Assembly: GCA_900542285.1 (NCBI GenBank)
Contig: UQNF01000002.1
Coordinates: forward strand, 10,376 to 74,375
DNA: 64,000 nucleotides
Direction of reading: 5' to 3'
Source: an uncultured Clostridium sp.
GTDB taxonomy: Bacteria > Bacillota > Clostridia > Christensenellales > CAG-138
The position numbers and the translations under genes are program-made. The notes beneath the pieces were generated by a model that was not told where the DNA came from, made no database searches, and saw nothing but the letters and a program-made list of their open reading frames with translations. Shown here piece by piece: positions 3,769 to 62,151 of the stretch (its first letter is position 1; each line of letters begins with the position of its first letter).

Positions 3769-3806
3769 GGAACATAGCATAAAGGTTTAGAAGGATAAAA
3801 AGATAA

Positions 3807-6173: not shown

Positions 6174-6209
6174 AAAAGCCAGGAAGCAGAAAAGCAGAAA
6201 GGAAGCCAT

Positions 6210-16975: not shown

Positions 16976-16987
16976 ACGGCCTCCTCC

Positions 16988-18131: not shown

Positions 18132-18202
18132 TTTCCTTCAAGGAACTCCGGCTCCTGAATATGGATGCGCAGCCCGTCCAAACGCTCTTGTATGTCAGCC
18201 AT
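18122..18202 (-). pseudogene. brxB: brxB (DUF1788) 5' remnant, about 26 codons
   Basis: MADIQERLDGLRIHIQEPEFLEGKGLS resembles the conserved BrxB N-terminus (EFL...GL). Homology then stops and the PglX sequence continues in another frame. Confidence 0.55.
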
Positions 18203-18214
18203 ATTGTGCCTCCT

Positions 18215-20770: not shown

Positions 20771-20986
20771 ATCCTTGCCTCCGATGTTATTACCTTTAAT
20801 ATTAGCATAAAACAATGCATTTTTCAAGCATTTGCAGATTATTCCCTTATTATCATGCTCAAAATACGGTATTAGATTCATATTCAGCTTTGAAGGCTTG
20901 ACAGCAGGCGCATTATTTTGTAACATTCTATTTACGGAGTTTACATCTGAGTACAGTAAAAAGAATAAAGGATGGGGGGCGAAAAA

Positions 20987-40700: not shown

Positions 40701-42586
40701 GATTTCGTTAAGTCCTTTATCGCTTTCCACACCTGCTGTATCTCACTTATACTTAGCTTGGTTTGGTTGAGCAGGATGAAATGCTTGTCCAAGTCGCTGT
40801 CGTTATAAAGCACATAACACTCTGCCTGCATATCGGGATCACGCCCTGCGCGTCCGGCTTCTTGCACATAGTCTTCCAGCGAACTTGAAATATCGTAGTG
40901 AACTACCAGCTTAACATCCTTTTTGTCTACACCCATGCCGAAAGCGGACGTTGCAACTATGACTTTCACCTCATTTCGACTGAAAGCCTCTTGGGTTGTT
41001 ATTTTATCGTTCGGATCCATTTTCCCGTTGAACGGCCTTGCAGGGAAACCATCACTTGTCAATTTCTCAGCGATTTCCCGAGTGCGTCTTGTTCTGGAAA
41101 CATAGACGATCGTTGGGCAATCCTTCTGCGCAATGAGGTTGCGGAGCGCACTGTATTTTTCTTCATCGGTTTCCTTGTACAGAACCGTGTAATGCAGGTT
41201 TTCGCGCGTTGCCGTGGAAGCAAAGAGCTCAAGATCCAAATCCAGCTTTTGCTTAAAGTAATCGCGGATATCACTGATTACTTTTTGCTTTGCTGTTGCC
41301 GTAAAACATGATACAGGTATTGGCTTTTTAGCGATCTTTTTCTTCTGCAATTCCCGAATAAAATCACCGATGTACAAATAATCGACGCGAAAATCCTGCC
41401 CCCATGCGGAGAAACAATGCGCTTCATCGATCACGAAACGGACGATATTCCGCGAAACCAAAATTCTTTCTATCGTGCGTGAACGCAATTGCTCGGGTGA
41501 AATATACATCAGTGTTGCGGATCCATTCTTGACTCGTTCCAGCGCATCCGCTCGTTCAATCGGATTAAGAAGACCGTTGACCGTTACAGCCTCCGTGATG
41601 CCGATACTGTTCAGATTGTCCACCTGATCTTTCATCAGGGATTGCAGCGGCGAGATAACAACCGTCAATCCATGAGCTGCTCTTCCTGCCATAAGCGCAG
41701 GGAGTTGAAAAGTTAAAGACTTTCCTCCGCCCGTCGGGAAAACCGCAAGCAATGATTTGCCTTCTGCCGCTGCTTGCACCGCCTTCTCCTGAAGCGGCTC
41801 GCCATTAAATGTTCTGAAACTGTCATAGCCAAAAATCCGCTTTAGATTGACGTGAATGTTAAGCGCATTTTTGCAATACACACACCCTTCTGCGCATGGG
41901 GTATTGCGGAGATATTTGATTACGTTTTCGATCTTTGGATAGTTCCGCAGGAGCCACGGCGGCGTAATAGAATAAAAGTCATCTGCTCCTATAAGTGCGA
42001 GGGCGTATGCAAGTTCAACCGGGTAGTGACGAATCAAAGGAAGAATATCCGCTTTTTCACATATCTTCCCTGCATATGCGCTGCGGATCAGATCCTGCAC
42101 ATTTGAATTGCACGGTTTGAAATTCAAATATTCAAAAAAACCGGTGAATTCGGGATAACCGTACAACAGGCAGCAGAAGATCCGCTGAACCTTTGCTGGC
42201 AGCGCAAAAAAAGCATTGACTTCATCATAAAAAAGATTTGCGGCCTTTTTGCAATCATTTACAGGATTATTAAGCTCTTCTGTTTGGAGCTTGTCGTCTT
42301 TCAGCAGGGCGTGGTATGGACGCTTTGGAAACAAAAGCGGTGACAGATAGAGCGTGTCAATTACTCCGACATTTATCTCCTTGCCAATAGCGGCTTGAAT
42401 GTACTTCAAATCATGGTAAATGATATTATGACCGCAAACAAATTCCGCTCCGAAAATAAACCGGATGAAATCACTAATGGAAGCGGAGTGAAAATAAGTC
42501 CTATTATTTCGTACCGCGCCAAGATCATGTATCTTCTTATCCTCAACACCGATCTCGGCGTCAATAAATACAACGGACTTTGCCAT
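37766..42586 (-). CDS. 1,606-aa fusion protein: DEDDh 3'-5' exonuclease + RecQ-type SF2 helicase + UvrD-type SF1 helicase
   Basis: Exonuclease motifs: VVFIDAEIG, FVCGHNIIYHDLKYI, YHALLKDD. RecQ motifs: AVFPTGGGKSLTFQLPAL, DEAHCFSAWGQDFR, CFTATA, SAFGMGVDKKDV, QEAGRAGRD. UvrD motifs: VAAGPGSGKTRVLVHK, LTFSRAAATEF, VLVIDEAQDMD, VGDDDQNIYEFRGS, TENYRS, TIHKAKGREFDSVYM, YVGMTRAKNELYI. Confidence 0.85.
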   Translation of the reverse strand: MAKSVVFIDAEIGVEDKKIHDLGAVRNNRTYFHSASISDFIRFIFGAEFVCGHNIIYHDLKYIQAAIGKEINVGVIDTLYLSPLLFPKRPYHALLKDDKLQTEELNNPVNDCKKAANLFYDEVNAFFALPAKVQRIFCCLLYGYPEFTGFFEYLNFKPCNSNVQDLIRSAYAGKICEKADILPLIRHYPVELAYALALIGADDFYSITPPWLLRNYPKIENVIKYLRNTPCAEGCVYCKNALNIHVNLKRIFGYDSFRTFNGEPLQEKAVQAAAEGKSLLAVFPTGGGKSLTFQLPALMAGRAAHGLTVVISPLQSLMKDQVDNLNSIGITEAVTVNGLLNPIERADALERVKNGSATLMYISPEQLRSRTIERILVSRNIVRFVIDEAHCFSAWGQDFRVDYLYIGDFIRELQKKKIAKKPIPVSCFTATAKQKVISDIRDYFKQKLDLDLELFASTATRENLHYTVLYKETDEEKYSALRNLIAQKDCPTIVYVSRTRRTREIAEKLTSDGFPARPFNGKMDPNDKITTQEAFSRNEVKVIVATSAFGMGVDKKDVKLVVHYDISSSLEDYVQEAGRAGRDPDMQAECYVLYNDSDLDKHFILLNQTKLSISEIQQVWKAIKDLTKSRTSVCCSPLEIARQAGWDDSVSEIETRVKTAVSALESAGYVKRGRNMPHVYATSILAKDMREASFRIDQSALFSEDQRKNAKRIIKSLISSRSITDAGNDDAESRVDYLADTLGMTKEEVINAVNLMRQEGLLADTQDMSAYILASDTEYKSSLILDRFAKLEKFLLSQLTSDGCDFNLKELNELAHAEGIAASSVKSLLTLIYYHTIKNYVGKSQYGASKTVRLIPLLDIGKLVEKYRLRIDLCRFILDVLYSKAGELAATDREEKPVLFSLVGLYSEYKAMPNMNTSAYEASLSDVEDALLYLSKIGALKLEGGFLVLYNGMEIKRLITDNRIKYKVDDYRFLDEFYKQKIRQIHIVGEYANLMVRDYDAALQFVQDYFQMDFRKFISKYFKGERAKDIDRNITPGKYNRLFGELSDVQYQIINDADSKYIVVAAGPGSGKTRVLVHKLAALLLLEDVKHEQLLMLTFSRAAATEFKKRLVSLIGNAANFVEIKTFHSYCFDLLGKIGSLEGVDNVVRNAAELIRNGEVEQGKITKSVLVIDEAQDMDDDEFDLVRALMQNNDDMRLIAVGDDDQNIYEFRGSNSRHMRTLIEEYGAVKYEMTENYRSKSAIISLGNAFVSSIKDRMKSTPIEAVESDAGTVIITHHCGKHMEAAVVDQIISTRGNARCCVLTNTNDEALQLLGLLTKNRVRAKLIQSLDGFRLYNLAEIRFFLKQIDRTLRTPVISDELWQRAKKQLYDTYAGSTCYEICVNLIRDFEATNPTKYRTDLEEFINESCYEDFYDDEGETVYVSTIHKAKGREFDSVYMMLNGNTAAADEEKRKIYVGMTRAKNELYIHCNTRLFSSFDIPGVMHKEDSHVYDEPAEISLQLAHRDVVLDFFKDKKRTVLQLRSGAELSIKDAFLYTELNGRGVPIAKLSKACIDTLQGLEGRGYHPYSADIRFIVAWKGEDDTEEIAVVLPNLHFRRQSICRNKG

Positions 42587-42654: not shown

Positions 42655-43260
42655 TTATCCGGCTCTGCTGAAATGCCTGAACGACAGTATCCCTATCGGG
42701 AGAAAATACGCACACCAGAATTCGAGAGCAGCCACACTTGCAGCGCCCGTTCCTCCGTCGGCCATGCCGCTGAAAGCGTCCGTCATCGGCATAATAAAGC
42801 ACCCAAAGAAGAAAATGCCATGGATAATCATCAGGTATTTCAGCCATTTGTCCGCCCTGTTATCCGCCTTGATGGTTAGGCCGATAAAGAAAGTCGAAAG
42901 GGCCATCATTCCGTAGCCGAGAAGATCGTAGCTGAAGAGCAGTCCGCCTCTTTTAAAATCCAGTATGGCCATTGCCTGCTCGCCAAGATTGCCAAGCCTG
43001 ACGGCGGTCGTCTGAGCAAAGTATACAAGGAATATCAGAACAGCATATATGGCCGCGAAGACCAGTCCGATATTTGCGGCGACCCTATGCCCGTCATCGC
43101 TTTCGCTGCAAAAGCCTGCAGCCATCATTATGTATCCAATCGGAAGCAGCATACACACGAAGTATGACCCGAAGCTAAAATCCAAAAGCAGAAACACGGC
43201 AAATACAAGCACCGCAGCGGATACTGTCAGCGAGCCGAGTTTGGAAAGCAGTCTGTTCAT
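42655..43260 (-). CDS. polytopic membrane protein, unknown family
   Basis: About 200 aa with at least 5 hydrophobic helices. ATG at 43260 lies 7 nt after AAGGAGA (the ORF track starts at a TTG one codon upstream). Ends 68 nt upstream of the giant helicase gene, on the same strand. Confidence 0.65.
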   Translation of the reverse strand: MNRLLSKLGSLTVSAAVLVFAVFLLLDFSFGSYFVCMLLPIGYIMMAAGFCSESDDGHRVAANIGLVFAAIYAVLIFLVYFAQTTAVRLGNLGEQAMAILDFKRGGLLFSYDLLGYGMMALSTFFIGLTIKADNRADKWLKYLMIIHGIFFFGCFIMPMTDAFSGMADGGTGAASVAALEFWCAYFLPIGILSFRHFSRAG

Positions 43261-43298
43261 CAAAGGATCTCCTTGGTTTTCGTTTCGACATTTGGTTC

Positions 43299-43327
43299 AT
43301 TATATCATGTGAAAGCCCGACCGTCAA
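43299..43327 (-). promoter_or_regulatory. sigma-70 promoter (TTGACG-N17-TATAAT), copy 2 of the duplicated cassette
   Basis: On the minus strand TTGACG = 43327-43322 and TATAAT = 43304-43299 with a 17-nt spacer. Drives the membrane-protein gene. Confidence 0.5.
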
Positions 43328-43574
43328 CGACAGTGAAGGTGTAACCGAAGATATGTTGGCGCGTCGATCATAGCTGACACTGTTTTCCTGCAATAAGTCC
43401 TGCGGCAAGCGTAGACCGGCGGCTCGGGTATGGGGGTCGCTCCATTGACCGAAAACAATGTGTGCATAAAAGCAAAGGGCTGCTGAAAAAGCGTACATCG
43501 CTTGGACAGCGGCCCCATGATATCCGAATATCTGTTGTCATTGTTGTCGGGGCCTAACTCAGCAGCCCCAATGG

Positions 43575-43766
43575 TTATTTCGTGCCTATCGCCGCCTCAA
43601 GCAGTGTTCTAAGCTCCCTCAGCTCGTCCGCAAGGAGCTTGAAATTCTGATTCAGGCAGTTCTCGTTGGCTTTGACATCGGCTTCGTAATCGAGCCTGTC
43701 AATGCCTTCCTCCCTGCCGGAGGGCAGGGCAACATAGTAAAGTGCTCTCATCTCCATATCCGTCAT
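43575..43766 (-). CDS. small phage-associated protein (63 aa), unknown
   Basis: Last ORF of the co-oriented structural string, starting 19 nt after the preceding gene. C-terminal coiled-coil-like sequence LADELRELRTLLEAAIG. Confidence 0.35.
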   Translation of the reverse strand: MTDMEMRALYYVALPSGREEGIDRLDYEADVKANENCLNQNFKLLADELRELRTLLEAAIGTK

Positions 43767-43784
43767 CTCCTCATAGCGATATTG

Positions 43785-45197
43785 TCATTCCGTTCCGCAC
43801 CGTTCGCTTATCAGAAGCTCCAGTCCGCCGACAAGCTCCAGCGCACCGCCCTCATCGTTGGAAATGACGAGCTGTATCGTCCTTCCCTCGTCCGCAAGGG
43901 GTATCTCCAGCACCTCTTCCTCGCCCGACGGCATACGGCGGTTGTAGGTGTTCAGGTGAACGCCCGAAAGCGTCGTGACATTCACCTTTCCGCCGCTGCC
44001 CCTAAGATAAAGCTTTCGGAGGCTCTTTATCGTACCCTTGTCGCCAAGATCGGTCAGCGGCGTCGTCCAGTAGGCGTCTATCATCTCGCCGTCATAGCTG
44101 TAGCCGATACCGAACCGATAGATGTATCCGCTGCCGTTTGTAAACAGCAGCCAGCCGTTGACGCTTGCCATGCAGCCGATGGAAAAGCCCCGGTGCAGAA
44201 GGTACTTCCTTTCAAGGATATCGTATTCCACCAGCATATCCTCCCTGCCTTGACGGATGTTGAAATAGAGCTTGTCGCCGACGGTCACGACATGGGACGA
44301 AACGATCAGCGCGTCCCTCATTAGCTTCTTTATCCTGAAGATATCCGCGCTGGGCCTTGCGGTGACGCCGTTATAATAGTAAAGTCCGCTGCTCGTCAGG
44401 AAGAACAGCACGTCACCGTACGCTGCTATGGCGTGCTGCCTTGCGGAGCGGTAGCTGGCGTCGATATGCTCGATCGTGAAATTGGACGGTCGATCACCTA
44501 TGAGCCTGAATAGGCTGCTGCGCTTGAAGATTAGAAGCTGGTTTGACAGCGCCGCTATTCCGATGATTGGGTCGCCTCCCGATGTTCCTACCTCCGCATG
44601 GCCGCCCTCCACGGCAGGGGAGGCTTCGATATAGCCCCAGTTGTCGATGCTCCGTCCGTCCCCGGGCAGTACGGAATAGTAGAGTCTGTTAGGATTTTCG
44701 CCGTCCCCGGCGGCAAAGAGCCTGCCGCGGTACATGGCGAGATAGGAAATGGGCATATCGGAGCAGCCCTCCTCAGAGCCGAACTGGGATACGCTTTCGC
44801 CGTCGTATTTTATCAGCGGATGGATGCCGTCGGCGATAATAAGGCAGTCGGCGGTGCCTATTTGTGCCATAACGGAATCGAACTCAGCTCCGCTCAAGCT
44901 TCCCTGTATCGTGTAAAGGCTTTGCCAGCTCATGTCCTTGTAGGCGTAAACTGTGCTGCCTGCGATAACGACAGGGTATTGCGCCGTGCTGCTGCGGTAG
45001 TAGGTCAGGTGCCGTATCCTGTCCGTGCCGGGTATGGGGTCGGGGAGCAGCTTAATAAAACCGTGCGCAAGGCTCAGCCTTCCGCCGTCGGTGGAAACGT
45101 TTGCTGCGTCGGGCGAGCAGGAAGGGGAGATACGGTTCTCGTCCATGCTCTGGTCAAGCCCTGAAAATCCGTCAATCCTGTATCGTTTAAGTGCCAT
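43785..45197 (-). CDS. phage structural protein, beta-propeller-like (possible tail hub/nozzle, P22 gp10-like by size and position)
   Basis: 470 aa with recurring blade-like strands (VVIAGSTVYAYKD, GRLFAAGDG, QLLIFKRSSLFRLIG, VLFFLTSSGLYYYNG, DKLYFNI, GWLLFTNGSGYIYRFG). The functional call is inference from gene order. Confidence 0.4.
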   Translation of the reverse strand: MALKRYRIDGFSGLDQSMDENRISPSCSPDAANVSTDGGRLSLAHGFIKLLPDPIPGTDRIRHLTYYRSSTAQYPVVIAGSTVYAYKDMSWQSLYTIQGSLSGAEFDSVMAQIGTADCLIIADGIHPLIKYDGESVSQFGSEEGCSDMPISYLAMYRGRLFAAGDGENPNRLYYSVLPGDGRSIDNWGYIEASPAVEGGHAEVGTSGGDPIIGIAALSNQLLIFKRSSLFRLIGDRPSNFTIEHIDASYRSARQHAIAAYGDVLFFLTSSGLYYYNGVTARPSADIFRIKKLMRDALIVSSHVVTVGDKLYFNIRQGREDMLVEYDILERKYLLHRGFSIGCMASVNGWLLFTNGSGYIYRFGIGYSYDGEMIDAYWTTPLTDLGDKGTIKSLRKLYLRGSGGKVNVTTLSGVHLNTYNRRMPSGEEEVLEIPLADEGRTIQLVISNDEGGALELVGGLELLISERCGTE

Positions 45198-45205
45198 GAT
45201 TCACC

Positions 45206-45745
45206 TCAGAATTTATTGATTATGCGGTACGAATCCTCCGCTCCGCGCTGTATTCTCAGCTGCGATTTGGCGTTCTCGAACATGGAAAGGTAGATGTTTC
45301 CGCCCCTCTGGGAGTTCACGTCGCCCACGAGTCTTTCGCGCCCGACTACATAGGTGACTATAAGCCCCTGAACGCCCTGGTCAAGCTCGCATTCGTCCGA
45401 GCTTCGCATTAGCTTTTTGGGCTGACAGCGGTAGGTGATGAGCGCAGGTGAGTTGTAGGGAAGCAGTATTCTGTCGCTGTTGTCGCCGCTCCCGAAGGGG
45501 ACGCAGTGTCCCTGCTGCACCACCCTCAGCACCTTGACGCAGACCCTTGGCAGGCTTGACAGGGTGATAACGCCGCCGTCGGCAGGCACGGTATCGGTCC
45601 TGTAAAAGCCTATCGCGTCCGCAAGCTCCTGCTGCGCCTGGTTGGCGTAGAGCGAAAATCGTATCCGGCATTCGGAAACGTTCGCGGCGTCGCTGCTCCG
45701 TCCGAGCTGTGTCAGCGCGGAAACCGTGATTTCGTTAAGATTCAT
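45206..45745 (-). CDS. phage structural protein (possible head-tail adaptor)
   Basis: 179 aa, directly upstream of the hub-like gene with an 8-nt gap. The function is positional inference only. Confidence 0.35.
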   Translation of the reverse strand: MNLNEITVSALTQLGRSSDAANVSECRIRFSLYANQAQQELADAIGFYRTDTVPADGGVITLSSLPRVCVKVLRVVQQGHCVPFGSGDNSDRILLPYNSPALITYRCQPKKLMRSSDECELDQGVQGLIVTYVVGRERLVGDVNSQRGGNIYLSMFENAKSQLRIQRGAEDSYRIINKF

Positions 45746-45759
45746 CTTTGCTCCTCCCT

Positions 45760-45972
45760 TCAGCCGAGCCTCGCTCCGCTGCCGCAGGTGAAACGGCGAT
45801 AGCGGCTTTCACTCAGCATTCGCTCCGCCTCGCCGGCCCTTATCAGCTCCGCAAGCGCTTCCGGCACTTCAACGGGTACGCCGCGCTCGATCCTGTAGTT
45901 TACGGAATTGATGCAGCCCTCCCAGGGGAGGTTATCCCGTGTTCTTTCCAATGTGATGGTTACTTTTTCCAT
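45760..45972 (-). CDS. small phage-associated protein (70 aa), unknown
   Basis: Tightly packed with the following gene (14-nt gap) on the same strand. Confidence 0.35.
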   Translation of the reverse strand: MEKVTITLERTRDNLPWEGCINSVNYRIERGVPVEVPEALAELIRAGEAERMLSESRYRRFTCGSGARLG

Positions 45973-45998
45973 TTTTTCTTCCTTTCATTTTCTCATTG

Positions 45999-46027
45999 TT
46001 GAACTTTGTCACGGCTTGATGTAAAAT
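45999..46027 (+). promoter_or_regulatory. candidate promoter of the EamA gene (TTGAAC-N17-TAAAAT)
   Basis: TTGAAC at 45999-46004 and TAAAAT at 46022-46027 with a 17-nt spacer; AAGGAG RBS before ATG 46075. Confidence 0.4.
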
Positions 46028-46074
46028 AGGGGACGCCTGCCCAAGGCCTTTATTTCCCTATAAGGAGCATATAA

Positions 46075-47043
46075 ATGAGACGCAAGACCCTGATAGGCGT
46101 GCTCTGTGTAGTCCTCGCCTCCATGTGCTACGGCATAACGCCCATCCTCTCCAATGCCGCTCTCCGCGGCGGCCTGCCTGCGGATTTCGTCCTCCGCGTG
46201 TTCGGCGAAGGGGCCGTTTCCGTCATGGCAGCGGATGCGAGCCGTGCCATGAGCAATGAAAGCGTCGTCGGCATCAGCATGGGCATTGCCTGCGTGCTTT
46301 CGGCTGCGGTATGCCTTATCGGCGGCAGACGCCTCCGCGTCAGCGGCAAACAGACATGGCAGCTCCTCGTCATGGGCGGCGGCGCATTTGCGGTCACCTG
46401 CCTGCTCATCTCCTTTGCGTATAATTTCATACCGGCAGGCATGGCGATAGTGCTGCATTTTACCTATCCGGTATTCGTGCTGCTTGCGTCCCTGCTCTTC
46501 TTCGGGGAAAGGGTCACGCCGCTCAGGCTCTGCTCGCTCGCCGCCGCGATAGCAGGCATCGTGCTTATGTCGGTCGGCAGCTTCGGCGGCAGCATAAAGC
46601 CCATAGGCATCATTCTCGCCCTGATATCGGGCATGACCTATGCCGCATACTTTCTCGCCGGCAAAAACGCCTCCTATTCGGAGCTTGATACCCCCATATC
46701 CAACACCTATATCACCGGCGCTGCCTGCGTTGTATGCATCGCCGCAGGGCTTTGCGGAGGGAGGTTCTCCGTTCCGTCCGATTGGTTCATGTGGGTGATA
46801 CTCGTGCTGGAGGCGCTCCTCGGCTATGTCATCGGCCTGCAGCTCCTGCTGAAGGGGGTGCGGCTCATAGGCTCCTCCGCCGCGTCCGCACTCAACACCT
46901 TGGAACCGGCCTTCGCTTCGATAACAAGCATGATAGTCTTCGGCGAAACGATGGGTCTTTTGAAGGGTTCGGGCGTTGTTCTTGTGCTCTTGGCGGCGCT
47001 TGCAAGCATTCTTGCGCTCAGAAAGAGCGGCGCAGAGGCGTGA
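46075..47043 (+). CDS. EamA/DMT-superfamily transporter
   Basis: 322 aa with about 10 TM helices in two homologous halves; typical DMT pattern (..ASMCYGITPIL.., ..LNTLEPAFASITSMIVFGE..). Confidence 0.8.
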   Translation: MRRKTLIGVLCVVLASMCYGITPILSNAALRGGLPADFVLRVFGEGAVSVMAADASRAMSNESVVGISMGIACVLSAAVCLIGGRRLRVSGKQTWQLLVMGGGAFAVTCLLISFAYNFIPAGMAIVLHFTYPVFVLLASLLFFGERVTPLRLCSLAAAIAGIVLMSVGSFGGSIKPIGIILALISGMTYAAYFLAGKNASYSELDTPISNTYITGAACVVCIAAGLCGGRFSVPSDWFMWVILVLEALLGYVIGLQLLLKGVRLIGSSAASALNTLEPAFASITSMIVFGETMGLLKGSGVVLVLLAALASILALRKSGAEA

Positions 47044-47044
47044 T

Positions 47045-47797
47045 TCAGGCAGTGTCCAGATGGGCCTCGACGAATTCCTTCACGCCTATCATGGTCTGCC
47101 TGCCGCATTTGCCGTCCACTCCGCCGCAGTAGTAGCCGAGTGAGTTGAGCGCACGCTGCAGGTTCTTTATCGCATCGCCCTGTATCATGGGCTTTGTGAC
47201 GGAAAGCACCACCTGCTCGTCATAGCAGTTCTCATCGTAGATGAGCTGGCGTGTCACAAGCCCCCTGTGGGTCCAGGGTCTTTCACTGAGCTTTGTCACG
47301 ACGACGCCGAAGCGTATTCCCCTTGCTTCCACGACAAGCGGCTCGCCGTTCAGAAATCCGCAAACCCAGCCCACATGGCTCATGCGTCCGTCGGGGTTCC
47401 GGTAAAACACCGCTTCGCCGAGCTGATAGCTTCGGTCCACCTCGTTCAGTGCGCCCTTGTCGCTGCACCATGCGATATAGCAGTAGTTGGCGTTCACGTC
47501 CGTACCGATGTAAACATCGAGCAGCCCCTGGCAGTCGCAGGCTCTGACCTTGCCGAGCACCCAGCTTTCGGTCGCATTTCGGTAGCTCTCGCCCGACCAG
47601 CCCTTTTTGCTGTAATAGCACTTGAACCGCTGCTCCAAAAGCTCCCGGGTCACGATGTTGCCGGTCGTCCCGAACAGGTATTCCCAAGGCTCCGTGCCGC
47701 ATTCCTCGATATCAAGGGGCAGCTCCGCACCCTCCGGAATGCTTTCGCGCTTGCAGTGTGAAAGTGCAAAGCGTACGAAATCGATAGCGTTTTTCAT
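47045..47797 (-). CDS. NlpC/P60-type peptidoglycan hydrolase with C-terminal PG_binding_1 domain (phage lysin-like)
   Basis: Catalytic Cys in CDCQGLL and His in RMSHVGWV. C-terminal GDAIKNLQRALNSLGYYCGGVDGKCGRQT. Start ambiguous: ATG 47797, or ATG 47911, which would overlap the upstream gene by 44 nt. Confidence 0.7.
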   Translation of the reverse strand: MKNAIDFVRFALSHCKRESIPEGAELPLDIEECGTEPWEYLFGTTGNIVTRELLEQRFKCYYSKKGWSGESYRNATESWVLGKVRACDCQGLLDVYIGTDVNANYCYIAWCSDKGALNEVDRSYQLGEAVFYRNPDGRMSHVGWVCGFLNGEPLVVEARGIRFGVVVTKLSERPWTHRGLVTRQLIYDENCYDEQVVLSVTKPMIQGDAIKNLQRALNSLGYYCGGVDGKCGRQTMIGVKEFVEAHLDTA

Positions 47798-47867
47798 TTT
47801 CTTGTTCGTTCCTTTCTCATGTTTCAAAATTCGATCGAAAGTCAGGCCCTGCTTTTCCCATATGCGC

Positions 47868-48797
47868 CTAATCGAGCGTATTGGGACGGTTTGACCTGCT
47901 TCCTGCGCCACTGCGTCCGTAGCCGCTGCCGGATCCGCTTCCGTTTGCGGCTATGCCGAATATCTCATCGATAAGCCGTTCGTATTCCCCGGGCGTCAGG
48001 GCTGACTGCGCGCTCTCCCTCAGCTTTCGCCAGTAGCTCAGATTTGAGTGCAGGAAGGACTGCCTGTCGTTGGGCTTGAGCGAGGAGATATAATTAAAGT
48101 ATTCGTTGTAGTATCCGGAGCTTTCGCTTTCCTCCGGCTCGTCAGCGCCGCCTGCGAGCCGATTGCGGTAGGCTATCTCCTCCATGGCGTTCCTGTGCTG
48201 AAGCTCTGTCTCATACAGCTGCGCTCTTATCCTTGCAAACTCGACGGAGGCGTTGTAGACGTATTGGGCAAGTTCTGCGCTGTAATCGGATTCGAGCCTT
48301 GCGATATCTCGGGCTATCGAATCGTATTCACGCTTTTTCATGCTCGAAAGATAGGTTGAGCCGCCCATTCCGCGCGAATAGGCGTCGGCGTCCAGCTCCG
48401 CCATAGCCGTCATGCCATAGTTCCTCCTGTCCTCAATAGCGGCATCGACCGCCGGGCGAAGGAAGGCTTCAAGCTGTGAATAGAGGCTTTCGAGGCCGGG
48501 AAGATCGGGCGATGCTCCGTAGCTCTGCAGCGTTGAGATGATGCTGCCGTAGTAATCGTCGATGCTGCCGCTCTGCGCTCCCTGCGCCGAACCTGCGGAA
48601 TTTGGGGCGGATACGGCCGAATCGCCATTGCCGCTTTCATAGAGCGAACCGGGGCCGTATGCCCTTTGGGAGGCGTTTCCGCCGACGGGAGCGATCGTCC
48701 CGGCTGCCTTTTCGACGGAGCCGCGCTTTACGGCGGAGCTGTCCTCCGCAACGGCGTCGGCAAGCTTCTTCCTCCTTCGGTAAAGTTTATATGCCAT
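47868..48797 (-). CDS. phage-associated protein, unknown (Gly/Ser-rich termini, central helical region)
   Basis: Start at ATG 48797 (GAAAGGAAG 5 nt upstream). Lies between the capsid and lysin genes. No recognisable motif. Confidence 0.5.
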   Translation of the reverse strand: MAYKLYRRRKKLADAVAEDSSAVKRGSVEKAAGTIAPVGGNASQRAYGPGSLYESGNGDSAVSAPNSAGSAQGAQSGSIDDYYGSIISTLQSYGASPDLPGLESLYSQLEAFLRPAVDAAIEDRRNYGMTAMAELDADAYSRGMGGSTYLSSMKKREYDSIARDIARLESDYSAELAQYVYNASVEFARIRAQLYETELQHRNAMEEIAYRNRLAGGADEPEESESSGYYNEYFNYISSLKPNDRQSFLHSNLSYWRKLRESAQSALTPGEYERLIDEIFGIAANGSGSGSGYGRSGAGSRSNRPNTLD

Positions 48798-48858
48798 ATT
48801 CTTCCTTTCCGGGATCATGGGCGATTTAGGAGGCCCACGATCCCTTGCCGAGCCGGTT

Positions 48859-50067
48859 TTAGGATACGGTATGCTCGATCCTTACGAGCCAAAGGTCGTT
48901 GAGTATCGCCGCGGTGTATGCGGTGACCTTTGCTCCGATGGTCGCCCTCTGGTCGAGGGGGTCGGCGGTGCCGGAGCTGCCGTGGGGCTTGACGATGAGC
49001 TGAACTGCACCCTTGCCTTCGACGTCGATAACGCCGTAAGCGTCCTTGCCAAATACGAGCGCACAGTGAACGTCCAGCGCCTTGCCGTCGCTTCCCTTGG
49101 ATGCCGCATCGTTGCTCCAAACCTCAGCGTTGGCGGTGAGGCTTGCGGCTGCGGAAAGGGTGACGGTATTGGTGTCCTCATCAAAGGGGGCTACGGCTGC
49201 AAGCGTGTATTCGTTGGAGCCTATCATGATTTTGTTGCCGGGGACGGAGAGGTACTCGATCTCGGCCTTTGTGGGGGTGTTCGCAAGCACGAAGGAGGTG
49301 CTTGAGTTCGTGGAGCTCTTAACGAAATTGCGTACTGCCTGCGTATATACCTTAGCCTCGGTGCTTTCGACGAATACCACGCCGTAAAGCATTCCGATCT
49401 CGCCGCTGTAAACGGCCTCTGCGTTGCTGTAAGCGGAAACGTTCTTCCACATCTCATCGCTCTGAAGGTCGTAGGTGGCCTCGGGTGAGCAGATGCAGAT
49501 ATAGTGGGGCTTTCTGCCGTCCTCAGAGAACTGGCGCGCCTTGTTCTTCTTGAGCGTGCGCACCGCCTTCCTGACCTCATCGGTGGTGAGCCTGTCGCTC
49601 GAGGTCAGCGCGGAACGGGATGTCTTGCCGCCTGCATACTGGACGTTGGTTCCGGCGCACATTGCGTCTCGGGTTACCCACTCGACGACGGTGCCGAGCT
49701 GTTCGCCCAAAAGCTCTGCGGAATCGTTGATGACGGCATCGTATGCGGTGAGGTCGAGGAGATCGCTGACCTCGACATATGCGCCGTACTGCTTGACCTC
49801 CGCTTCAACGTCGCTCTGCGAGAGGGTCTGTCCGCTCGGGGTCACGCCCTCAACGAGGCCGCGCATTGCGCTCTGGGGGTCGAAAAGGTTCCAGCGGCGG
49901 AAGTTTACATACTTGCCGTTTCCGCGCGGGATGGGTCGCTTCTGGCCGAATTCGGCGTGAACGAACCTGGTCTTTGCGCTCTCCAAAAGCTGCCTGTCAT
50001 AAAACTTCACAGGGAATTTCGCGCTCTGTGCTGCGCTGACAGTGGTGTTAATATTGATATTTGCCAT
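48859..50067 (-). CDS. phage major capsid protein (HK97-fold; N-terminus resembles N4-gp56-family MCPs)
   Basis: 402 aa. The N-terminal block ..KFYDRQLLESAKTRFVHAEFGQKRPIPRGNGKYVNFRRW.. matches my recollection of this capsid family. Preceded by a scaffold-like gene. Confidence 0.7.
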   Translation of the reverse strand: MANININTTVSAAQSAKFPVKFYDRQLLESAKTRFVHAEFGQKRPIPRGNGKYVNFRRWNLFDPQSAMRGLVEGVTPSGQTLSQSDVEAEVKQYGAYVEVSDLLDLTAYDAVINDSAELLGEQLGTVVEWVTRDAMCAGTNVQYAGGKTSRSALTSSDRLTTDEVRKAVRTLKKNKARQFSEDGRKPHYICICSPEATYDLQSDEMWKNVSAYSNAEAVYSGEIGMLYGVVFVESTEAKVYTQAVRNFVKSSTNSSTSFVLANTPTKAEIEYLSVPGNKIMIGSNEYTLAAVAPFDEDTNTVTLSAAASLTANAEVWSNDAASKGSDGKALDVHCALVFGKDAYGVIDVEGKGAVQLIVKPHGSSGTADPLDQRATIGAKVTAYTAAILNDLWLVRIEHTVS

Positions 50068-50142
50068 AGTTGTTCCTTTCTTTTCTTCTTTTTTGTGTGT
50101 TTATCGTGCGTTTACGGTCTTGGGCTGAGCCGCCGCAGCCGT

Positions 50143-50721
50143 TCAGATCCTGACCCTGCGGCCGTCCATGCTCGCCTTCTTTAGCTGTCTGCGGAGCTTG
50201 CGGAAGTCCTCACTGCTCATGTTCTCATAGTCGGTTTCCGGAGCCTGTCCCATGCTGCCGCGTATCGGCCTTGGGAGCATTGCGTTCCTTTTGGCGTTCA
50301 TGCTGTCCTGACCGTCCTCCGGACCGTCCGGACTGTCCTTTGGACCGTCCGTGTTGTCATTTTCATTGTCCATGCGTCGCAGAAGCGTTACCACAACGGC
50401 AATGGGGTTGATGCCCTCCGGGATGCCGACACGCTCCAGCATCGCTTCGCCGAGCATCATTGCGGCACGCTCATAGCTGTCATGGCTGCCATTGCTGTCG
50501 CCGCTGTCCGAACCGTCCGCATTGTCAGCATTGTCCGAATTGTCCGTATTGTTTTCGCCGCCTGCATCCGCAGGGGCGGTGCATATCTGTTCACCTTCGC
50601 ACCCTTCCGCGGCCTTCCTGCCGCTCTTGGCGGTTCCATTCGCCTCTTCTTTGGGGTTCGGCTTGCCCCTTGTACCTGCGAGCCTGTCGAGAAGCTCCTG
50701 CAGTTTCTTATTCCTGCTCAT
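50143..50721 (-). CDS. possible capsid scaffolding protein (acidic, low complexity)
   Basis: 192 aa with D/N/S/G-rich linkers (DNSDNADNADGSDSGDSNGS and DGPKDSPDGPEDGQDS) and a basic C-terminal helix. The position just upstream of the capsid gene suggests a scaffold. Confidence 0.4.
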   Translation of the reverse strand: MSRNKKLQELLDRLAGTRGKPNPKEEANGTAKSGRKAAEGCEGEQICTAPADAGGENNTDNSDNADNADGSDSGDSNGSHDSYERAAMMLGEAMLERVGIPEGINPIAVVVTLLRRMDNENDNTDGPKDSPDGPEDGQDSMNAKRNAMLPRPIRGSMGQAPETDYENMSSEDFRKLRRQLKKASMDGRRVRI

Positions 50722-51044
50722 TTTTCTTTCGGGCTGCGTGTTTCAGCAGCCCATCCTTTCTCCCCGGGACTGATGCGCCGCCCGGGGACGGCTTTTCCGA
50801 TACGGCCGAAGCTCCCCAAGATAAAATAAAGCCCTCCGCAGATGAGTTGGATTTCTGCGGAAAGCTCTTTTCATCAGCCCGGCTGTAAAGGTGTATGACG
50901 GAAAGAGCGATGCCAATTCTGCCAACGCAATTCCCATCGACAACTATTATACCACATTTGGAGAATTAAATCAACTGTTTAGAGAATTATTTTTGAAAAA
51001 ATCTCTACTTACGAGATTGAAATGACAAATCCTTCCTCCGGATT

Positions 51045-51365
51045 GTCCCAACCAGTGCGGCGAGTTAACCCCCGACCGCCAAGCAGGGAGCGAGTTCCCC
51101 GGTTTTCCAGAACAAAGCGGCGAGTTTCCCGAACTGTCCATACCAGTTCGGCGAGTCGTACTCCGACCGCCACGCAGGGAGCGAGCTTCTCCGGCTTTCC
51201 CGAACTGTCCAAACCAATGCGGCGAGTCGTCCCCCGACCGCCAAGCAATGCGGCGAGCTTCTCCGGCTTTCCCGAACTGTCCAAACCAATGCGGCGAGTC
51301 CCCTCATGCACCCCCGAACAGTGGGCGAGTATCTTTTGCTTCCCCGAATTTTGCGGCGAACTGTG
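51045..51365. repeat. array A: ten phased copies of a GCGGCGAG-type 8-mer inside higher-order 61-72-bp repeats
   Basis: 8-mers start at 51057, 51087, 51117, 51148, 51178, 51219, 51250, 51291, 51322 and 51353, with spacings of 30, 30, 31, 30, 41, 31, 41, 31 and 31 nt. A 41-nt block is exactly repeated at 51186 and 51258. Confidence 0.9.
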
Positions 51366-51447
51366 CTCAGAACAAAAACAGCACAGCACTCACCATCGGT
51401 AATGAGGGTATCCAAATACAATGGCCTTCGCGCGCACACACACGCAA

Positions 51448-51486
51448 GCACGAGGCGGCTTTGCCGCCCGTGCTTATGTTTTTTTA
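51448..51486 (+). terminator. GC-rich hairpin plus T-run between the two arrays (terminator-like)
   Basis: GCACGAGGCGGC-ttt-GCCGCCCGTGC (11 bp, one bulged A), followed by TTATGTTTTTTTA. Confidence 0.4.
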
Positions 51487-51521
51487 TAATTTTTTTATTA
51501 ATATTATTTTATTTTATTATT

Positions 51522-51770
51522 GGGTGACAAATCGTGACTTTATTGACCTATTTTGTCACCCCCCCTTAAGACCTGATTTGTCGCACCCTAAGTCCTATTT
51601 TGTCACCCCCCCTCAGACCTGATTTGTCGCACCCTCAGACCTGATTTGTCGCACCCTAAGTTCTATTTTGCCACCCCCTCCTCAGACCTGTTTTGTCCCC
51701 CCCTCAGACCTGTTTTGTCACACCCTCCGATCGGCTTCTTTGTTCGCATTATGACCACTTTTGTCACCCC
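51522..51770. repeat. array B: about 11 direct copies (21-25-bp period) of a TTTGTC(A/G)C-containing iteron plus one inverted copy, adjacent to an AT-rich tract
   Basis: TTTGTC (or 1-nt variant) starts at 51552, 51577, 51599, 51623, 51645, 51667, 51692, 51714, 51739 and 51760. The exact 22-mer cctcagacctgatttgtcgcac occurs at 51611 and 51633. The inverted copy GGGTGACAAA (51522-51531) pairs with TTTGTCACCC (51552-51561). The tract 51474-51521 is almost pure A/T. Confidence 0.9.
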
Positions 51771-51807
51771 CTCCGATCGGCTTTGCAGTTCGCATATTGG
51801 CCTGCCA

Positions 51808-51891
51808 ATCACAGCTGAGAAGGACTTTAGCAACGGCATTATCAATACTGCCGACGCCCTCCTTGCGATAAGGGTAGGCATGGGGCTGTAA
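51808..51891 (+). pseudogene. possible 3' remnant of a dockerin-containing gene
   Basis: The frame ends in AEKDFSNGIINTADALLAIRVGMGL*, which resembles the second Ca-binding segment and helix of type I dockerins (D.N.DG.IN..DAL..LR...GL). No upstream coding part remains. Confidence 0.3.
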
Positions 51892-52021
51892 GCCGATCGC
51901 CGTCTGCGACTTAATACGAGTTGAATAGTTAACGAATGTTTTTTCGTTCTCCATGCGCCGGACATCTGCCCGGTGCATTTTCCATCATCGGAGTATCTGC
52001 TCTCATTCATGGCACGGATTA

Positions 52022-52058
52022 AATAAAAAACACCGCCCCGAAAGCCGGAGCGGCGGTG
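52022..52058 (-). terminator. rho-independent terminator of the DHHW operon
   Basis: Minus strand: CACCGCC...GGCGGTG hairpin followed by TTTTTTATT, 10 nt after the stop at 52069. Confidence 0.6.
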
Positions 52059-52068
52059 AAAAAACGAA

Positions 52069-53232
52069 TCATCTCAGCCAGACGAGATCGCCGGTGGTCT
52101 GTGCGGTGTCCACGCCGTAGATAACGAGAAGCTCCTCTATACCGTATTCGGAACAAAGCTCCGAGGGGAGCGGCATTGCGGAGTTAAAGTACCTGACATC
52201 CAGCATGACTATCCTGCTGTAATGGTTTGCAAGGAACGGCACTATCGCATTGCCGTAGCTGTCCTTCAGCACCAGCAGCGTTCCGCCCTCGGCGTTTGGA
52301 TTCTCGATAACGGTGATGCCGTGGTTGCTGTACAGATATGCCGCATAGCGGTCAACGACGCCTTCCTCAAGGCAGCTTTCGTCTATCATGCCGCTGTGGG
52401 CGGTCTCCTTGCCGCCGTCAATGGTGGTAACGGCGATGTCGGAGTCGCTGTCCGCAGTCCAAACCTCCAGACTGTCGGGCTTGGTCAGCATAAGACCGCT
52501 GCTGCCGTAGCTTGTGCCGTAAAATTCAAATGAACGCTTGGAAAACTCCGACTCAGGCAGCGGAGTGAAGCCAAGGCTTTCCCCAATGCTTTGGTACAGC
52601 AGATAGCTGCCCTGCATCGTCAGATGGTGGTCGGTGCGGTAGTAGAGGGAGGATACATCCGCTGCGGATGAAAAAAGCTCCCCGACAGGAATGCTACTGC
52701 CGCCGGCCGCCTCCGAAAAGCCGCTGACAATGCTGCCGTCATCGTATTCAAGGTGAAGCTTCGGGAGCTCATCTTCGAGCATATAGCCGGAGCTCGGAAT
52801 GATAACGAGCGTTGTGTTAAGGGAATTTTCCTCGGCAAATCTCTTTACAAGGCCGCCGTTCGTCAGGAGCTTGGCTTCATCGTATACCGTTGGGGTGTTG
52901 AAAAGCCTGTCGCCCTTGCCCATGATGATGCTCTCGGTCGCGTTGCGGCCGGTATAGCGGTTGAGATAGGAATAGAGCGATACGAAGAAATTCCTTGCCG
53001 GGAAATGGTCCTGCAGCCAGGTGTCCACCTCTGCGGCAAAGTTTCCGCTGATAAAGCTGCTCAGGCTGGCGTCCGGAGCCTTGGCAAGCATACGCCGTTC
53101 GTTCGGGCTAAGCTCGCCCTCATGCTTGGGCAGAAAGCATATGAGCAGAAAGAATACGACGATAACCGCCAAAAAAGCGGCTATCATCGCGATCTGTGAT
53201 GTTCTGACCTTGTTGTTACTTGATGAGCTCAT
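52069..53232 (-). CDS. DHHW-family protein (AlgX/AlgJ-like, putative polysaccharide O-acyl transfer accessory)
   Basis: N-terminal TM anchor. LSPNERRMLAKAP....FP.R and the YYRTDHHLT motif (a DHHW variant). Confidence 0.7.
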   Translation of the reverse strand: MSSSSNNKVRTSQIAMIAAFLAVIVVFFLLICFLPKHEGELSPNERRMLAKAPDASLSSFISGNFAAEVDTWLQDHFPARNFFVSLYSYLNRYTGRNATESIIMGKGDRLFNTPTVYDEAKLLTNGGLVKRFAEENSLNTTLVIIPSSGYMLEDELPKLHLEYDDGSIVSGFSEAAGGSSIPVGELFSSAADVSSLYYRTDHHLTMQGSYLLYQSIGESLGFTPLPESEFSKRSFEFYGTSYGSSGLMLTKPDSLEVWTADSDSDIAVTTIDGGKETAHSGMIDESCLEEGVVDRYAAYLYSNHGITVIENPNAEGGTLLVLKDSYGNAIVPFLANHYSRIVMLDVRYFNSAMPLPSELCSEYGIEELLVIYGVDTAQTTGDLVWLR

Positions 53233-59847: not shown

Positions 59848-60100
59848 GAATATGAACTATGACGGAAAGAGTAGGATATCATCCTCTGCAAAGAGAGCCG
59901 GCGGTCGGTGCAAGCCGGACGGGGGACTATCCGAACATGGCTCCCGAGTTCCCATCGCCGAACCGAATTTCGCTCAGGCCTTGGCGTGTTCGCACGTTAC
60001 AGCGTCAATGAAGCCCTCGCTCTGCGGGGGGAATTAGGGTGGTACAGCGTTTTTTTCGCCCCTATGCTTGGTTTTCCCGGGCATAGGGGTATTAATTTCC
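59848..60100 (+). promoter_or_regulatory. T-box riboswitch leader, Met specifier
   Basis: AGAGA/GNUGNGA-type stem I elements (aaagagagccggcggtcggtgcaagccgg), candidate specifier AUG at 59937-59939, T-box sequence AATTAGGGTGGTACAGCG at 60032-60049, and terminator stem CCCCTATGC (60059-60067) / GCATAGGGG (60081-60089). Confidence 0.8.
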
Positions 60101-60144
60101 CGGGAAATACCGCAAAATTTCGGCTGAATTATATAGGAAAGGAA

Positions 60145-62151
60145 ATGATTATGGAAAACAAGACCTTTTATATCACGACCCCGATCTATTACCCGAGTGC
60201 CAAGCTGCACATCGGGCATACCTACTGCACCGTCAATACCGATGCGCTTGCACGCTACAAGCGTCTTACGGGGTATGATGTGTACTTCCTGACCGGTGCG
60301 GATGAGCACGGCCAGAAGATAGAGCGCAAGGCTGCCGAGAAGGGCGTCACCCCTCAGCAGTATGTGGATGAGATTGTTGACGGCTTCCATGCCCTGTGGA
60401 AGCTCATGGACATCTCCAATGACGGCTTTGTCCGCACGACCGATGATTATCATATCGCCTGCGTGCAGAAGGCTTTTAGGAAGCTCTATGAAAAGGGCGA
60501 TATCTACAAGAGCACCTATAAGGGCAAGTACTGCACCCCCTGCGAAGCGTTCTGGACGGAAACCCAGCTCAAGGAGAGCGGCGGCGTCTGCCCCGACTGC
60601 GGAAGGCCCGTCGAGGAGGTCACGGAGGAAAGCTACTTCCTGCGCGTCAGCAAGTATGCTCCGAGGCTCATTCAGTACATAAACGACAACTCCGATTTCA
60701 TCCAGCCCGCTTCACGCGCCAAGGAGATGCTCAATAACTTCCTGCTTCCGGGCCTTGAGGACCTCTGCGTCAGCCGCAGCACCTTCAAGTGGGGCGTGCC
60801 GGTGGATTTTGACGACAAGCATGTGGTCTATGTTTGGTTCGATGCCGTTCTGAACTATCTGTCCAAGCTCGGCTTCCTCTCCGACGATGATTCGATGTAT
60901 CGCCGCTATTGGCCTGCCGATGTGCATATCGTCGGCAAGGAGATAATGAGATTCCATACGATAGTATGGCCCATTATCCTTATGGCGCTGGATGTACCGC
61001 TGCCCAAGCATGTATATGGTCACGGCTGGCTCGTGCTGGACGGCAAGAAGATGGGCAAGTCCACCGGAAATGTCGTTGACCCCGTCATGCTCGTAGAGCG
61101 TTACGGCGTGGATGCGATACGCTATTTCCTTCTCAGCGAGTTCCCATTCGGAAATGACGGCAGCTTTGACAACGCAACCCTCGTCACACGCATCAACAGC
61201 GACCTTGTAAACGATTTGGGCAACCTGCTGTCGAGGACGGTTGCGATGATAGAAAAATACTTTGACGGCCGCATTCCGCAGCACGATGCTCCCGTTCCGG
61301 AGGAGGACGAAGCCATTATCGAAGCGGCGCTTGCACTTTCCGGCCGCATTGAGGAATGCATGAATGCCTTCCATCCCAATGAGGCGCTCAGCGAGATATT
61401 CAGGCTCGTTCGTTTGTGCAACAAGTACATTGATATCACTGCTCCGTGGCTGCTTGCCAAGGATGAAAGCAAGCGGGCGAGGCTCGGCACGGTGCTGTAC
61501 AACCTTGCGGAGTGCCTGCGTATAGTCGGCGTATGCTTACAGCCCTACCTCACCAGGACTTCGCCGAAGATCTTCGCCCAGCTCGGCGTTGCGGACGATG
61601 CGCTTATGAGCTTTGAAAGCATTCATGAGTTCGGCAGGATATGTGTCGGTCAGAAGGTCGAAAAGGGAGAAGCCTTGTTCCCCAGAATAGATATCAAAAA
61701 GGAGCTTGAATATCTCGAGACCCTGCTCCCCAAGAATGATGAGCCTGCAGCTCCCGAGGCAAATAAGGAAGCCTCCGCACCCTCCGATAAGGCTGAAAGC
61801 TCCGACCTGCCCGATCTGCTCGATGAGATAAGCTATGATGACTTTGCCAAGCTCGATCTGCGCCTTGCCAAGGTAGTGGCGTGCGAGGAGGTCCCCAAGT
61901 CCAAGAAGCTGCTCAAATGCACCCTCGATTTGGGCTTTGAAACGAGGACAGTGCTCTCCGGCATCAAAAAATGGTATTCGCCCGATCAGCTCGTTGGAAA
62001 GACGGTCGTTGTCGTCGCCAATCTTGCTCCGAAGGTCATGTGCGGCATCGAAAGTCACGGCATGATACTCTGTGCGAGCGATGCAGGCGATGTCAACCTT
62101 TCCGCATTGACGACTCTTAAAGACATGGCTCCGGGGCTCAAGGTGAGATAA
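60145..62151 (+). CDS. metG: methionine--tRNA ligase with C-terminal tRNA-binding (EMAP/Trbp111-like) domain
   Basis: HIGH motif (KLHIGHTY), KMSKS variant (KMGKSTGN), zinc knuckle CTPCEAF....CPDCG, and C-terminal LDLRLAKVVACEEVPKSKKLLKCTLDLG. Start at ATG 60145 or 60151. Confidence 0.9.
   Translation: MIMENKTFYITTPIYYPSAKLHIGHTYCTVNTDALARYKRLTGYDVYFLTGADEHGQKIERKAAEKGVTPQQYVDEIVDGFHALWKLMDISNDGFVRTTDDYHIACVQKAFRKLYEKGDIYKSTYKGKYCTPCEAFWTETQLKESGGVCPDCGRPVEEVTEESYFLRVSKYAPRLIQYINDNSDFIQPASRAKEMLNNFLLPGLEDLCVSRSTFKWGVPVDFDDKHVVYVWFDAVLNYLSKLGFLSDDDSMYRRYWPADVHIVGKEIMRFHTIVWPIILMALDVPLPKHVYGHGWLVLDGKKMGKSTGNVVDPVMLVERYGVDAIRYFLLSEFPFGNDGSFDNATLVTRINSDLVNDLGNLLSRTVAMIEKYFDGRIPQHDAPVPEEDEAIIEAALALSGRIEECMNAFHPNEALSEIFRLVRLCNKYIDITAPWLLAKDESKRARLGTVLYNLAECLRIVGVCLQPYLTRTSPKIFAQLGVADDALMSFESIHEFGRICVGQKVEKGEALFPRIDIKKELEYLETLLPKNDEPAAPEANKEASAPSDKAESSDLPDLLDEISYDDFAKLDLRLAKVVACEEVPKSKKLLKCTLDLGFETRTVLSGIKKWYSPDQLVGKTVVVVANLAPKVMCGIESHGMILCASDAGDVNLSALTTLKDMAPGLKVR

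Follow-up and report, generated by a model that had tools for sequence, protein, structure and literature searches.

A strain-hypervariable minisatellite with a conserved 8-bp core beside a relic phage-type replication origin in one species of gut Clostridia

The 64,000-nt stretch of DNA analyzed here (hereafter the window) contains, on its + strand at positions 51022-51365, a tandem array of ten degenerate direct repeats, Array A. Array A is a real, strain-hypervariable minisatellite that was found in only one species of gut Clostridia. It is non-coding, its copy number and unit order are hypervariable, it is confined to a single lineage, its units keep a short core, and it lies beside the relic of a phage-type origin. 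Our preferred interpretation, held tentatively and somewhat short of an even chance, is that Array A is an orphan iteron-like array of candidate protein-binding repeats within a relic prophage replication module, where it turns over by slippage. We infer that a protein binds the core and that Array A and the neighboring Array B derive from one ancestral phage module. Array A is a possible strain-typing marker for an uncultured, Christensenellales-like gut species and a cause of assembly breaks at the locus; if its core is bound by a phage or host protein, it would also show how the cis-acting sites of a dead prophage survive gene loss and perhaps gain a role.

The units of Array A are 30-31 nt long, or 41 nt where they carry a 10-nt insert (cttctccggc), and each is closed by a box of the form G(C/G)(G/A)GCGAG. 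The ten GCGGCGAG-type boxes are all on the + strand between 51057 and 51360; they start at 51057, 51087, 51117, 51148, 51178, 51219, 51250, 51291, 51322, and 51353, giving spacings of 30, 30, 31, 30, 41, 31, 41, 31, and 31 nt. An earlier note on this DNA had listed the same boxes, and its positions and distances were recovered exactly. The exact repeat that it described within the array is also present, but is 48 nt long (51181-51228 and 51253-51300) and not the 41 nt claimed. Tandem Repeats Finder gives a higher-order period of 72 bp, with 2.5 copies and a 90% match. The 27- and 30-nt unit sequences have no further copy in the 64-kb window and were absent from 100 shuffles, and an extended box, RTGCGGCGAGT, has one match outside Array A in the window, with one mismatch. 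The repeats themselves have what is expected of an iteron array, namely one orientation, a conserved core, and a tandem arrangement. A CRISPR array was considered and rejected: no more than 8 nt of each unit are conserved, and what would be the "spacers" are interrelated. General Pfam and PHROG scans of the large ORFs in the window revealed no Cas families.

Among 46 distinct units from nine strain contigs, the box positions carry 1.0-2.0 bits, with CGA invariant (2.0 bits each), as against 0-1.3 bits for the spacer positions, although the box values are partly circular and somewhat inflated because units were located by their box. Weaker conservation (CCAAnCAnT) is seen about 10 bp left of the box and also 6 bp right of it, the other positions carrying 0-0.5 bits. 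The box stays intact even between units with many spacer differences; degenerate boxes (GGAACGAG, GCGGCGAT, and GCGGAGAT) do exist. The large contrast between box and spacer is the main argument that the box is best read as a recognition element, either present or recent. The earlier note had likened the block to an array of binding sites, and the strain data, in which a short core is kept and the rest of each unit varies, uphold that look.

All boxes had also been predicted to lie on one face of the helix. This depends on the helical repeat assumed: at about 10.2 bp/turn, the window boxes are in register (resultant length R = 0.95), but at 10.5 bp/turn (R = 0.20) they wind round the helix. 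Loss of the phasing in related copies had been named beforehand as refuting the idea, and the outcome is mixed. Relative to random spacings, the register is better in L354 (P = 0.006), L357 (P = 0.021), and L368 (P = 0.004), marginal in L366 (P = 0.057), and no better than random in two of seven strains (L307, P = 0.60; L364, P = 0.36), where it has been lost. Irregular spacings of 27 or 34-36 nt make up 11 of 63 across the nine strain contigs. The 41-nt unit, by comparison, is a 31-nt unit plus the 10-nt insert, and register is preserved across it. With at least four of seven strains above random, the boxes of Array A tend to be phased, but not strictly.

The Array A of an independent sample, L247, is identical to that of the window, and these two are the only arrays that confirm each other exactly. 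Most of the other strain variants come from short-read metagenome assemblies, which are prone to mis-assembly of repeats, and the unit counts are thus approximate: 7 boxes in L354, about 10 in L307, 14 in L357, 16 in L366, and 17 in L368. In L367 (positions 5036-6773), at least 46 boxes extend over at least 1.7 kb and reach the end of the assembly scaffold, with higher-order duplications of 211- and 280-bp periods that are 96-100% identical; so long an array may be a true large expansion or a product of mis-assembly. Unit types common to several strains occur in different orders. The flanking genes of the variant strains are 98-99% identical, and the immediate flanks of Array A are 96.7-100% identical, whereas the array itself aligns at 71-92% over only part of its length. 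With tandem units in the 10-100 bp range and a polymorphic copy number between conserved flanks, Array A qualifies as a variable-number tandem repeat. Many metagenome assemblies break inside the array.

The distribution of Array A is narrow. An ORF-based search of 5.8 billion proteins detected such arrays only here, in the three cases whose context was checked. The earlier note had proposed a search of phage and plasmid databases for the array; blastn of 50722-52068 against phage and plasmid collections gave no match. Degenerate box patterns, when run against viral and metagenome contigs, yielded almost only chance matches or GC-rich phage coding repeats, and the single real match, L307, is the same locus in another strain. 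Among 80 related genomes, none has a GCGAG cluster upstream of its scaffold gene, nor was a similar array seen in the examined parts of related viral contigs. Possible proto-units in sister species, GTGCGGCAA in L169 and ATGCGGCGGAG in L171, are at similar positions; not being conserved in close relatives, they were judged to be due to chance.

Array A occupies part of a 1,347-bp gap between a scaffold-like gene (50143-50721, - strand) and a host DHHW-family gene with its own terminator (52069-53232, - strand). The scaffold-like gene is the first of a phage-derived cluster that lies to the left of the array on the - strand (42655-50721) and includes a major capsid gene (48859-50067; PHROG major head protein, E = 1e-68) and, down to 42655, further virion-type genes of 311, 288, 179, and 470 aa. 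From left to right, the gap comprises a leader and promoter, an inverted repeat, Array A, a 180-bp unique segment with two hairpins, an AT-rich tract, Array B, and about 300 bp in which no credible gene was found. A predicted sigma-70-type promoter for the scaffold-capsid operon (50946-50974, - strand) has TTGATT with its -35 at 50974, a 17-nt spacer, and TATAAT with an upstream TG and its -10 at 50946, in a region conserved in sister species. Just upstream of this -35 is the inverted repeat AGAGAA-N14-ATCTCT (50981-51006), which is kept in at least six related species (L167, L169, L171, L178, L182, and L217) and is a likely operator. Homology with sister species ends at about 51007, at this inverted repeat, which marks the left limit of a species-specific insert. 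The nearest sister species that share the DHHW-scaffold gene order have a spacer of only 345 bp (L169) or 257 bp (L172), with neither array in it. Because the sister spacers lack the arrays and homology stops where it does, about 1 kb (51008-52030) is species-specific.

The 5' leader of the capsid operon is about 220 nt (50722-50945, - strand), and its promoter-proximal part is conserved across species; an internal hairpin, CCGCAGA...TCTGCGG with a T-rich run after it (about 50868-50830), resembles a terminator. The leader could be an attenuator or antitermination leader, judging from this hairpin; it has no Rfam match.

The right part of the species-specific segment is phage-like. The AT-rich tract (51474-51521) is about 110 bp to the right of Array A and abuts Array B, not Array A; it is presumed to be the DNA-unwinding element of a relic origin, its layout being that of viral contigs. 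It is followed by an inverted iteron copy, GGGTGACAAATCGTGAC (51522-51540, + strand), and by Array B (51545-51800, + strand), about 9-11 direct iterons of 22-23 bp, GACCTGATTTGTCGCACCCTCA, that were recognized through a repeat search and a viral-contig match and whose copy number differs markedly between strains. A pattern of two adjacent Array B units matched 30 viral contigs (L369-L398), where by our own estimate far fewer than one match would be expected by chance. Many of the 30 have an AT-rich tract and then two to six tandem units of 21-23 bp, such as tGTGACAATTTGTCACACCCC. In all eight viral contigs examined, the iterons are inside an opposite-strand gene of 208-400 aa, and seven of these eight genes have PHROG replication initiation, O-like, or DnaD-like matches, with E-values down to 7e-38. 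The layout of these contigs and of Array B is that of ori-lambda, in which four 18-bp iterons and a 38-bp AT-rich tract lie inside gene O (PMC3349717).

Peptides encoded by the iterons of the window (GGDKSG, GVTK, and GCDKSGL) resemble the linkers of phage initiators, but stop codons cross these iterons in every frame. Since the viral-contig iterons are in initiator genes and the window frames are stopped, Array B and the AT-rich tract are, to judge from sequence, a lambda-O-type origin inside a dead initiator gene: iterons and AT-rich tract are both there, and the gene is disrupted. Its presumed decayed 5' part (51731-52030, - strand) has short ORFs only, gave no match in a family search, and diverges by 3-8% between strains, about the neutral rate; that it is an initiator remnant is presumed from its position and the iteron-encoded peptides. 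A GC-rich palindrome by the AT-rich tract was entertained as a regular origin component, but was not seen in the phage origins examined. Array A is linked to this relic by TGACAAATC, a partial inverted Array B iteron core at its left edge (51023-51031, + strand); its reverse complement forms the core of the units in Array B. This 9-mer has only two copies in the 64 kb, at 51023 and 51525, which bracket Array A and the middle segment.

The interpretation that we prefer would account for these features as follows. The 8-bp core (GCGGCGAG or GGAGCGAG) would be the recognition element of a sequence-specific DNA-binding protein whose gene is not adjacent, and the species-specific segment in which Array A sits would be the remnant of a prophage replication module, also carrying the dead lambda-O-like initiator gene with its internal origin of Array B and the AT-rich tract. 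Partial iteron copies flank Array A and the middle segment at both ends. The cognate gene may be gone, or may act only in trans from related phages; no candidate box-binding protein was found in the window. Units would be gained, lost, and shuffled by slipped-strand or unequal recombination, which we propose as the reason that strains have from 7 to at least 46 boxes. Like phage and plasmid iterons, the repeats of Array A share one orientation and a short conserved core within a longer, less conserved unit; they are spaced at nearly whole helical turns and lie about 110 bp from an AT-rich tract, one that abuts Array B, and from that genuine iteron array of the O-like type. They differ in that only 8 positions of the ~31-nt unit are strongly kept, in their copy number, which is 3-6 for iterons, and in being unrelated in sequence to Array B. 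Furthermore, O-type iterons are inside the initiator gene, whereas Array A is outside any gene and without an associated initiator; an iteron origin would have a cognate Rep or O gene in cis, and the sole initiator remnant here belongs to Array B. The span in box number also tells against the preferred interpretation, being unusually wide for a working array of cis-acting sites.

That same span is what would be expected if Array A were a functionless, neutral minisatellite, arisen from junk at the junction of the replication module and the capsid operon and varied by slippage, a strong alternative, though one that we consider somewhat less likely. The array is restricted to one species, and sister species of identical gene order lack it; large, recent higher-order duplications (the 211 and 280 periods, 96-100% match) are seen, and many metagenome contigs break within it. 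The adjoining Array B, the gene of which is dead, also varies in number, some boxes of Array A are degenerate, and some strains have lost the phasing. However, neutral decay should erode a unit evenly, and the 8-bp core has been preserved far better than the other positions; the long units differ by a 10-nt insert that preserves helical register; and the adjoining middle segment (51366-51545) is more conserved than synonymous sites. Divergence between strains in this segment is 0-3.3%, compared with 3-8% to the right of Array B and 3-11% at synonymous sites of the flanking genes, and it therefore appears constrained, as far as such comparisons go. The mycobacterial MIRU loci are well-known bacterial variable-number tandem repeats, or minisatellites. 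Array A resembles these in being intergenic, with units of tens of bp, strain-polymorphic copy number, and conserved flanks, but its units are heterogeneous except for the 8-bp core, and it is a single locus and not a member of a dispersed family.

Two hairpins lie within or at the edge of the middle segment. CTGTGCT-N12-AGCACAG (51361-51386, + strand) is directly 3' of the last box. The second, a GC-rich and terminator-like hairpin on the + strand, GCACG-A-GGCGGC TTT GCCGCC CGTGC followed by TTATGTTTTTTT, extends from 51448 to 51486; the hairpin (51448-51473) and the T-run to 51486 are identical in five strains. The earlier note had reported this strong hairpin and T-run, and it is there; a simple terminator scan missed it because of the bulged A. 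It looks like an intrinsic terminator, functioning on the + strand only. Array A could be part of a + strand non-coding RNA of about 470 nt, from about 51010 to this terminator, in which a varying number of repeat modules (C-rich stretches and small box hairpins) would serve as sponge or scaffold, either for a protein or for G-rich RNA sequences. We regard this as unlikely. In its favor are the strong, strand-specific hairpin and T-run, which have no + strand gene upstream, the conserved 3' flank, and the middle segment, which diverges less than synonymous sites. In units with a downstream ...GACCGCC, the box can pair as GGCG-A-GUN...NAC-CGCC, and one paired position is variously C:G, U:G, or A:U, of which U:G is workable on the + strand only. 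Folding of the array alone gave z-scores of -0.5, -2.5, and -2.2 for the + strand, as against +1.0, -0.9, and +0.9 for the - strand.

These z-scores are weak, however, and the structural context of the box differs between unit types. The compensatory change is a lone one, a single double change for which both unpaired intermediates (A..G and C..U) are present, so that it perhaps reflects linkage and not selection; as evidence of hairpin covariation in the ...GACCGCC units it was rejected as unconvincing. In L307 the stem of the 51361-51386 hairpin is disrupted. Even the best candidate for a + strand promoter, with 9 of 12 matches at 50937-50966, is unconvincing, and the Rfam 15 covariance models gave no match to the region at gathering score and, at permissive thresholds (E up to 10), only chance-level ones. 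The type III toxin-antitoxin ToxI layout consists of a promoter, tandem repeats of 34-36 nt, a terminator, and the toxin gene. Array A likewise has tandem units, of about 30-36 nt, ahead of an intrinsic terminator on their own strand, but its units are irregular in length and sequence, and the terminator is followed by an AT-rich tract and iterons and not by a toxin gene. The only + strand ORF after 51486 is one of 81 aa that runs through Array B, for which no family match was found.

It is less likely still that both arrays are maintained orphan cis-acting sites attached to a domesticated capsid cluster, serving either as phage decoys or as sites for a helper phage. In the decoy version, Array B would titrate the replication initiator of a superinfecting phage and Array A a second, box-binding protein, with copy number expanding and contracting in an arms race; the whole would be a chromosomal, repeat-based form of origin-derived phage exclusion. 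In the helper version, a helper phage would replicate via Array B and recognize the region via Array A, and the locally encoded capsid proteins could then be used to move host DNA. Origin-derived resistance to phage is known from lactococci as Per. Here too, orphan phage-origin repeats reside in a host and could in principle titrate replication proteins, but the known cases are of multicopy plasmids and were shown experimentally, whereas the repeats here are chromosomal and known from sequence alone. The "inhibition phenotype" of lambda likewise needs ori iterons in trans (PMC3349717).

The setting is noteworthy in itself: a capsid-gene cluster that has neither portal nor terminase, is under strong purifying selection, and has a capsid gene conserved in at least 167 species. 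These are Christensenellales-like gut and rumen Clostridia, in which the capsid gene is about 60-82% identical among the best 80. Within the species, pN/pS of the capsid gene is 0.00-0.07, compared with 0.16-0.22 for the host DHHW gene, with which the cluster is syntenic in sister species. The cluster looks domesticated, and not decaying. Array A is not needed for the capsid operon because sister species with an otherwise identical operon do not have it. The scaffold-like gene (50143-50721) is far more variable than the adjoining capsid gene, with 86-94% identity between strains, in-frame indels, pN/pS of 0.4-0.6, and short coding repeats of 9-27 bp. Ideas that the boxes are Chi-like, an anti-Shine-Dalgarno sponge, transposon ends, or sigma-54 enhancers found no support in the sequence.

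In relatives, the portal gene is elsewhere or, in the more distant ones, directly upstream of the scaffold gene, and no array is present. This position, together with direct repeats at roughly helical spacing upstream of a scaffold-capsid operon, is what recommends Array A as a pac site for the small subunit of terminase, or as a plasmid or phage centromere of the parS/sopC kind, both of which the earlier note had suggested. We consider either to be very improbable. Pfam and PHROG searches of large ORFs, both in the cluster and throughout the window, found no gene for terminase, portal, ParA/ParB, or an intact Rep, although a pac site is expected in or next to terS/terL and a partition site adjacent to parA/parB-type genes. 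Moreover, no array occurs in sister species with the same gene order or in the related viral contigs examined. The accompanying suggestion that the array sits in place of the portal and terminase genes also fails, as the 257-345 bp spacers of sister species contain no array. F-plasmid sopC is a centromere-like array of direct repeats with short protein-recognition cores. Array A parallels it in its direct repeats, which number about ten or more, measure 30-45 bp, and contain a short core (a candidate one in the case of Array A); it differs in being chromosomal and unstable in copy number and in having no nearby gene for a partition ATPase or centromere-binding protein. The only positional analogue of Array A among the 80 related genomes is unrelated in sequence: a distant relative, the rumen MAG L237, has 1.5 kb of non-coding DNA (3126-4629) upstream of the scaffold gene, with 11 copies of GCTAAATA, variable small hairpins between them, and other repeat families.

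Four overlapping ORFs of 124-128 codons, on both strands, cross Array A, and the earlier note had taken such ORFs to be a side effect of the repeats. This is borne out. Box spacings in the nine strain contigs are 27, 29-32, 34-36, and 40-41 nt, and because these lengths (27-41 nt) are not divisible by three, the units shift the reading frame. From a shared ATG onward, the frames of the window and L307 differ after residue 15, and an identical DNA unit is read as RRV, CGE, or AAS in the predicted products. Gene callers predict products of 102-213 aa that have several unrelated, frame-dependent C-termini; all four substitutions seen in the unique 5' codons are nonsynonymous, and in L357 the ATG has become ATA. 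Family searches with the ORFs gave no convincing match, and a HMMER scan of 1.84 billion representative proteins returned four, with 61-71% identity, which are presumably ORFs of the same locus. Two weak matches of the - strand ORF, to Pfam DUF7440 (E = 0.006) and phrog_3795 (E = 1e-4), had hinted at a decayed gene, a lead that was dropped because the HMMER scan yielded only those four presumed same-locus proteins. The relatives do not, therefore, have the normal repeat-protein gene that had been named as a refutation of the non-coding view, neither frame nor protein being conserved. Long ORFs do remain open through the array in many strains, but a gene for a repeat protein (either 51022-51402 on the + strand or one of the - strand ORFs) has scarcely any likelihood, as a coding gene is excluded by the missing frame conservation, and the divergent C-termini, the lost ATG, the uniformly nonsynonymous 5' substitutions, and the lack of homologues outside the locus all oppose it.

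Several features elsewhere in the window deserve mention. The product of a - strand gene (37766-42586) is 1,606 aa long and combines DEAD/Helicase_C with UvrD-like helicase domains. This gene is missing in L007, another strain of the same species, where the capsid cluster abuts hydrogenase genes; the helicase gene is an insertion and possibly a defence gene. PglZ (14366-16975) and BrxA (18215-18820) genes, both on the - strand, are parts of a BREX-type phage-defence system (14366-18820), and a gene for a Fic-domain protein (19724-21001) adjoins them. Lastly, a T-box leader (59850-60066, + strand; Rfam RF00230, 97.9 bits) overlaps the first listed start codon of a 747-aa ORF (59908-62151).
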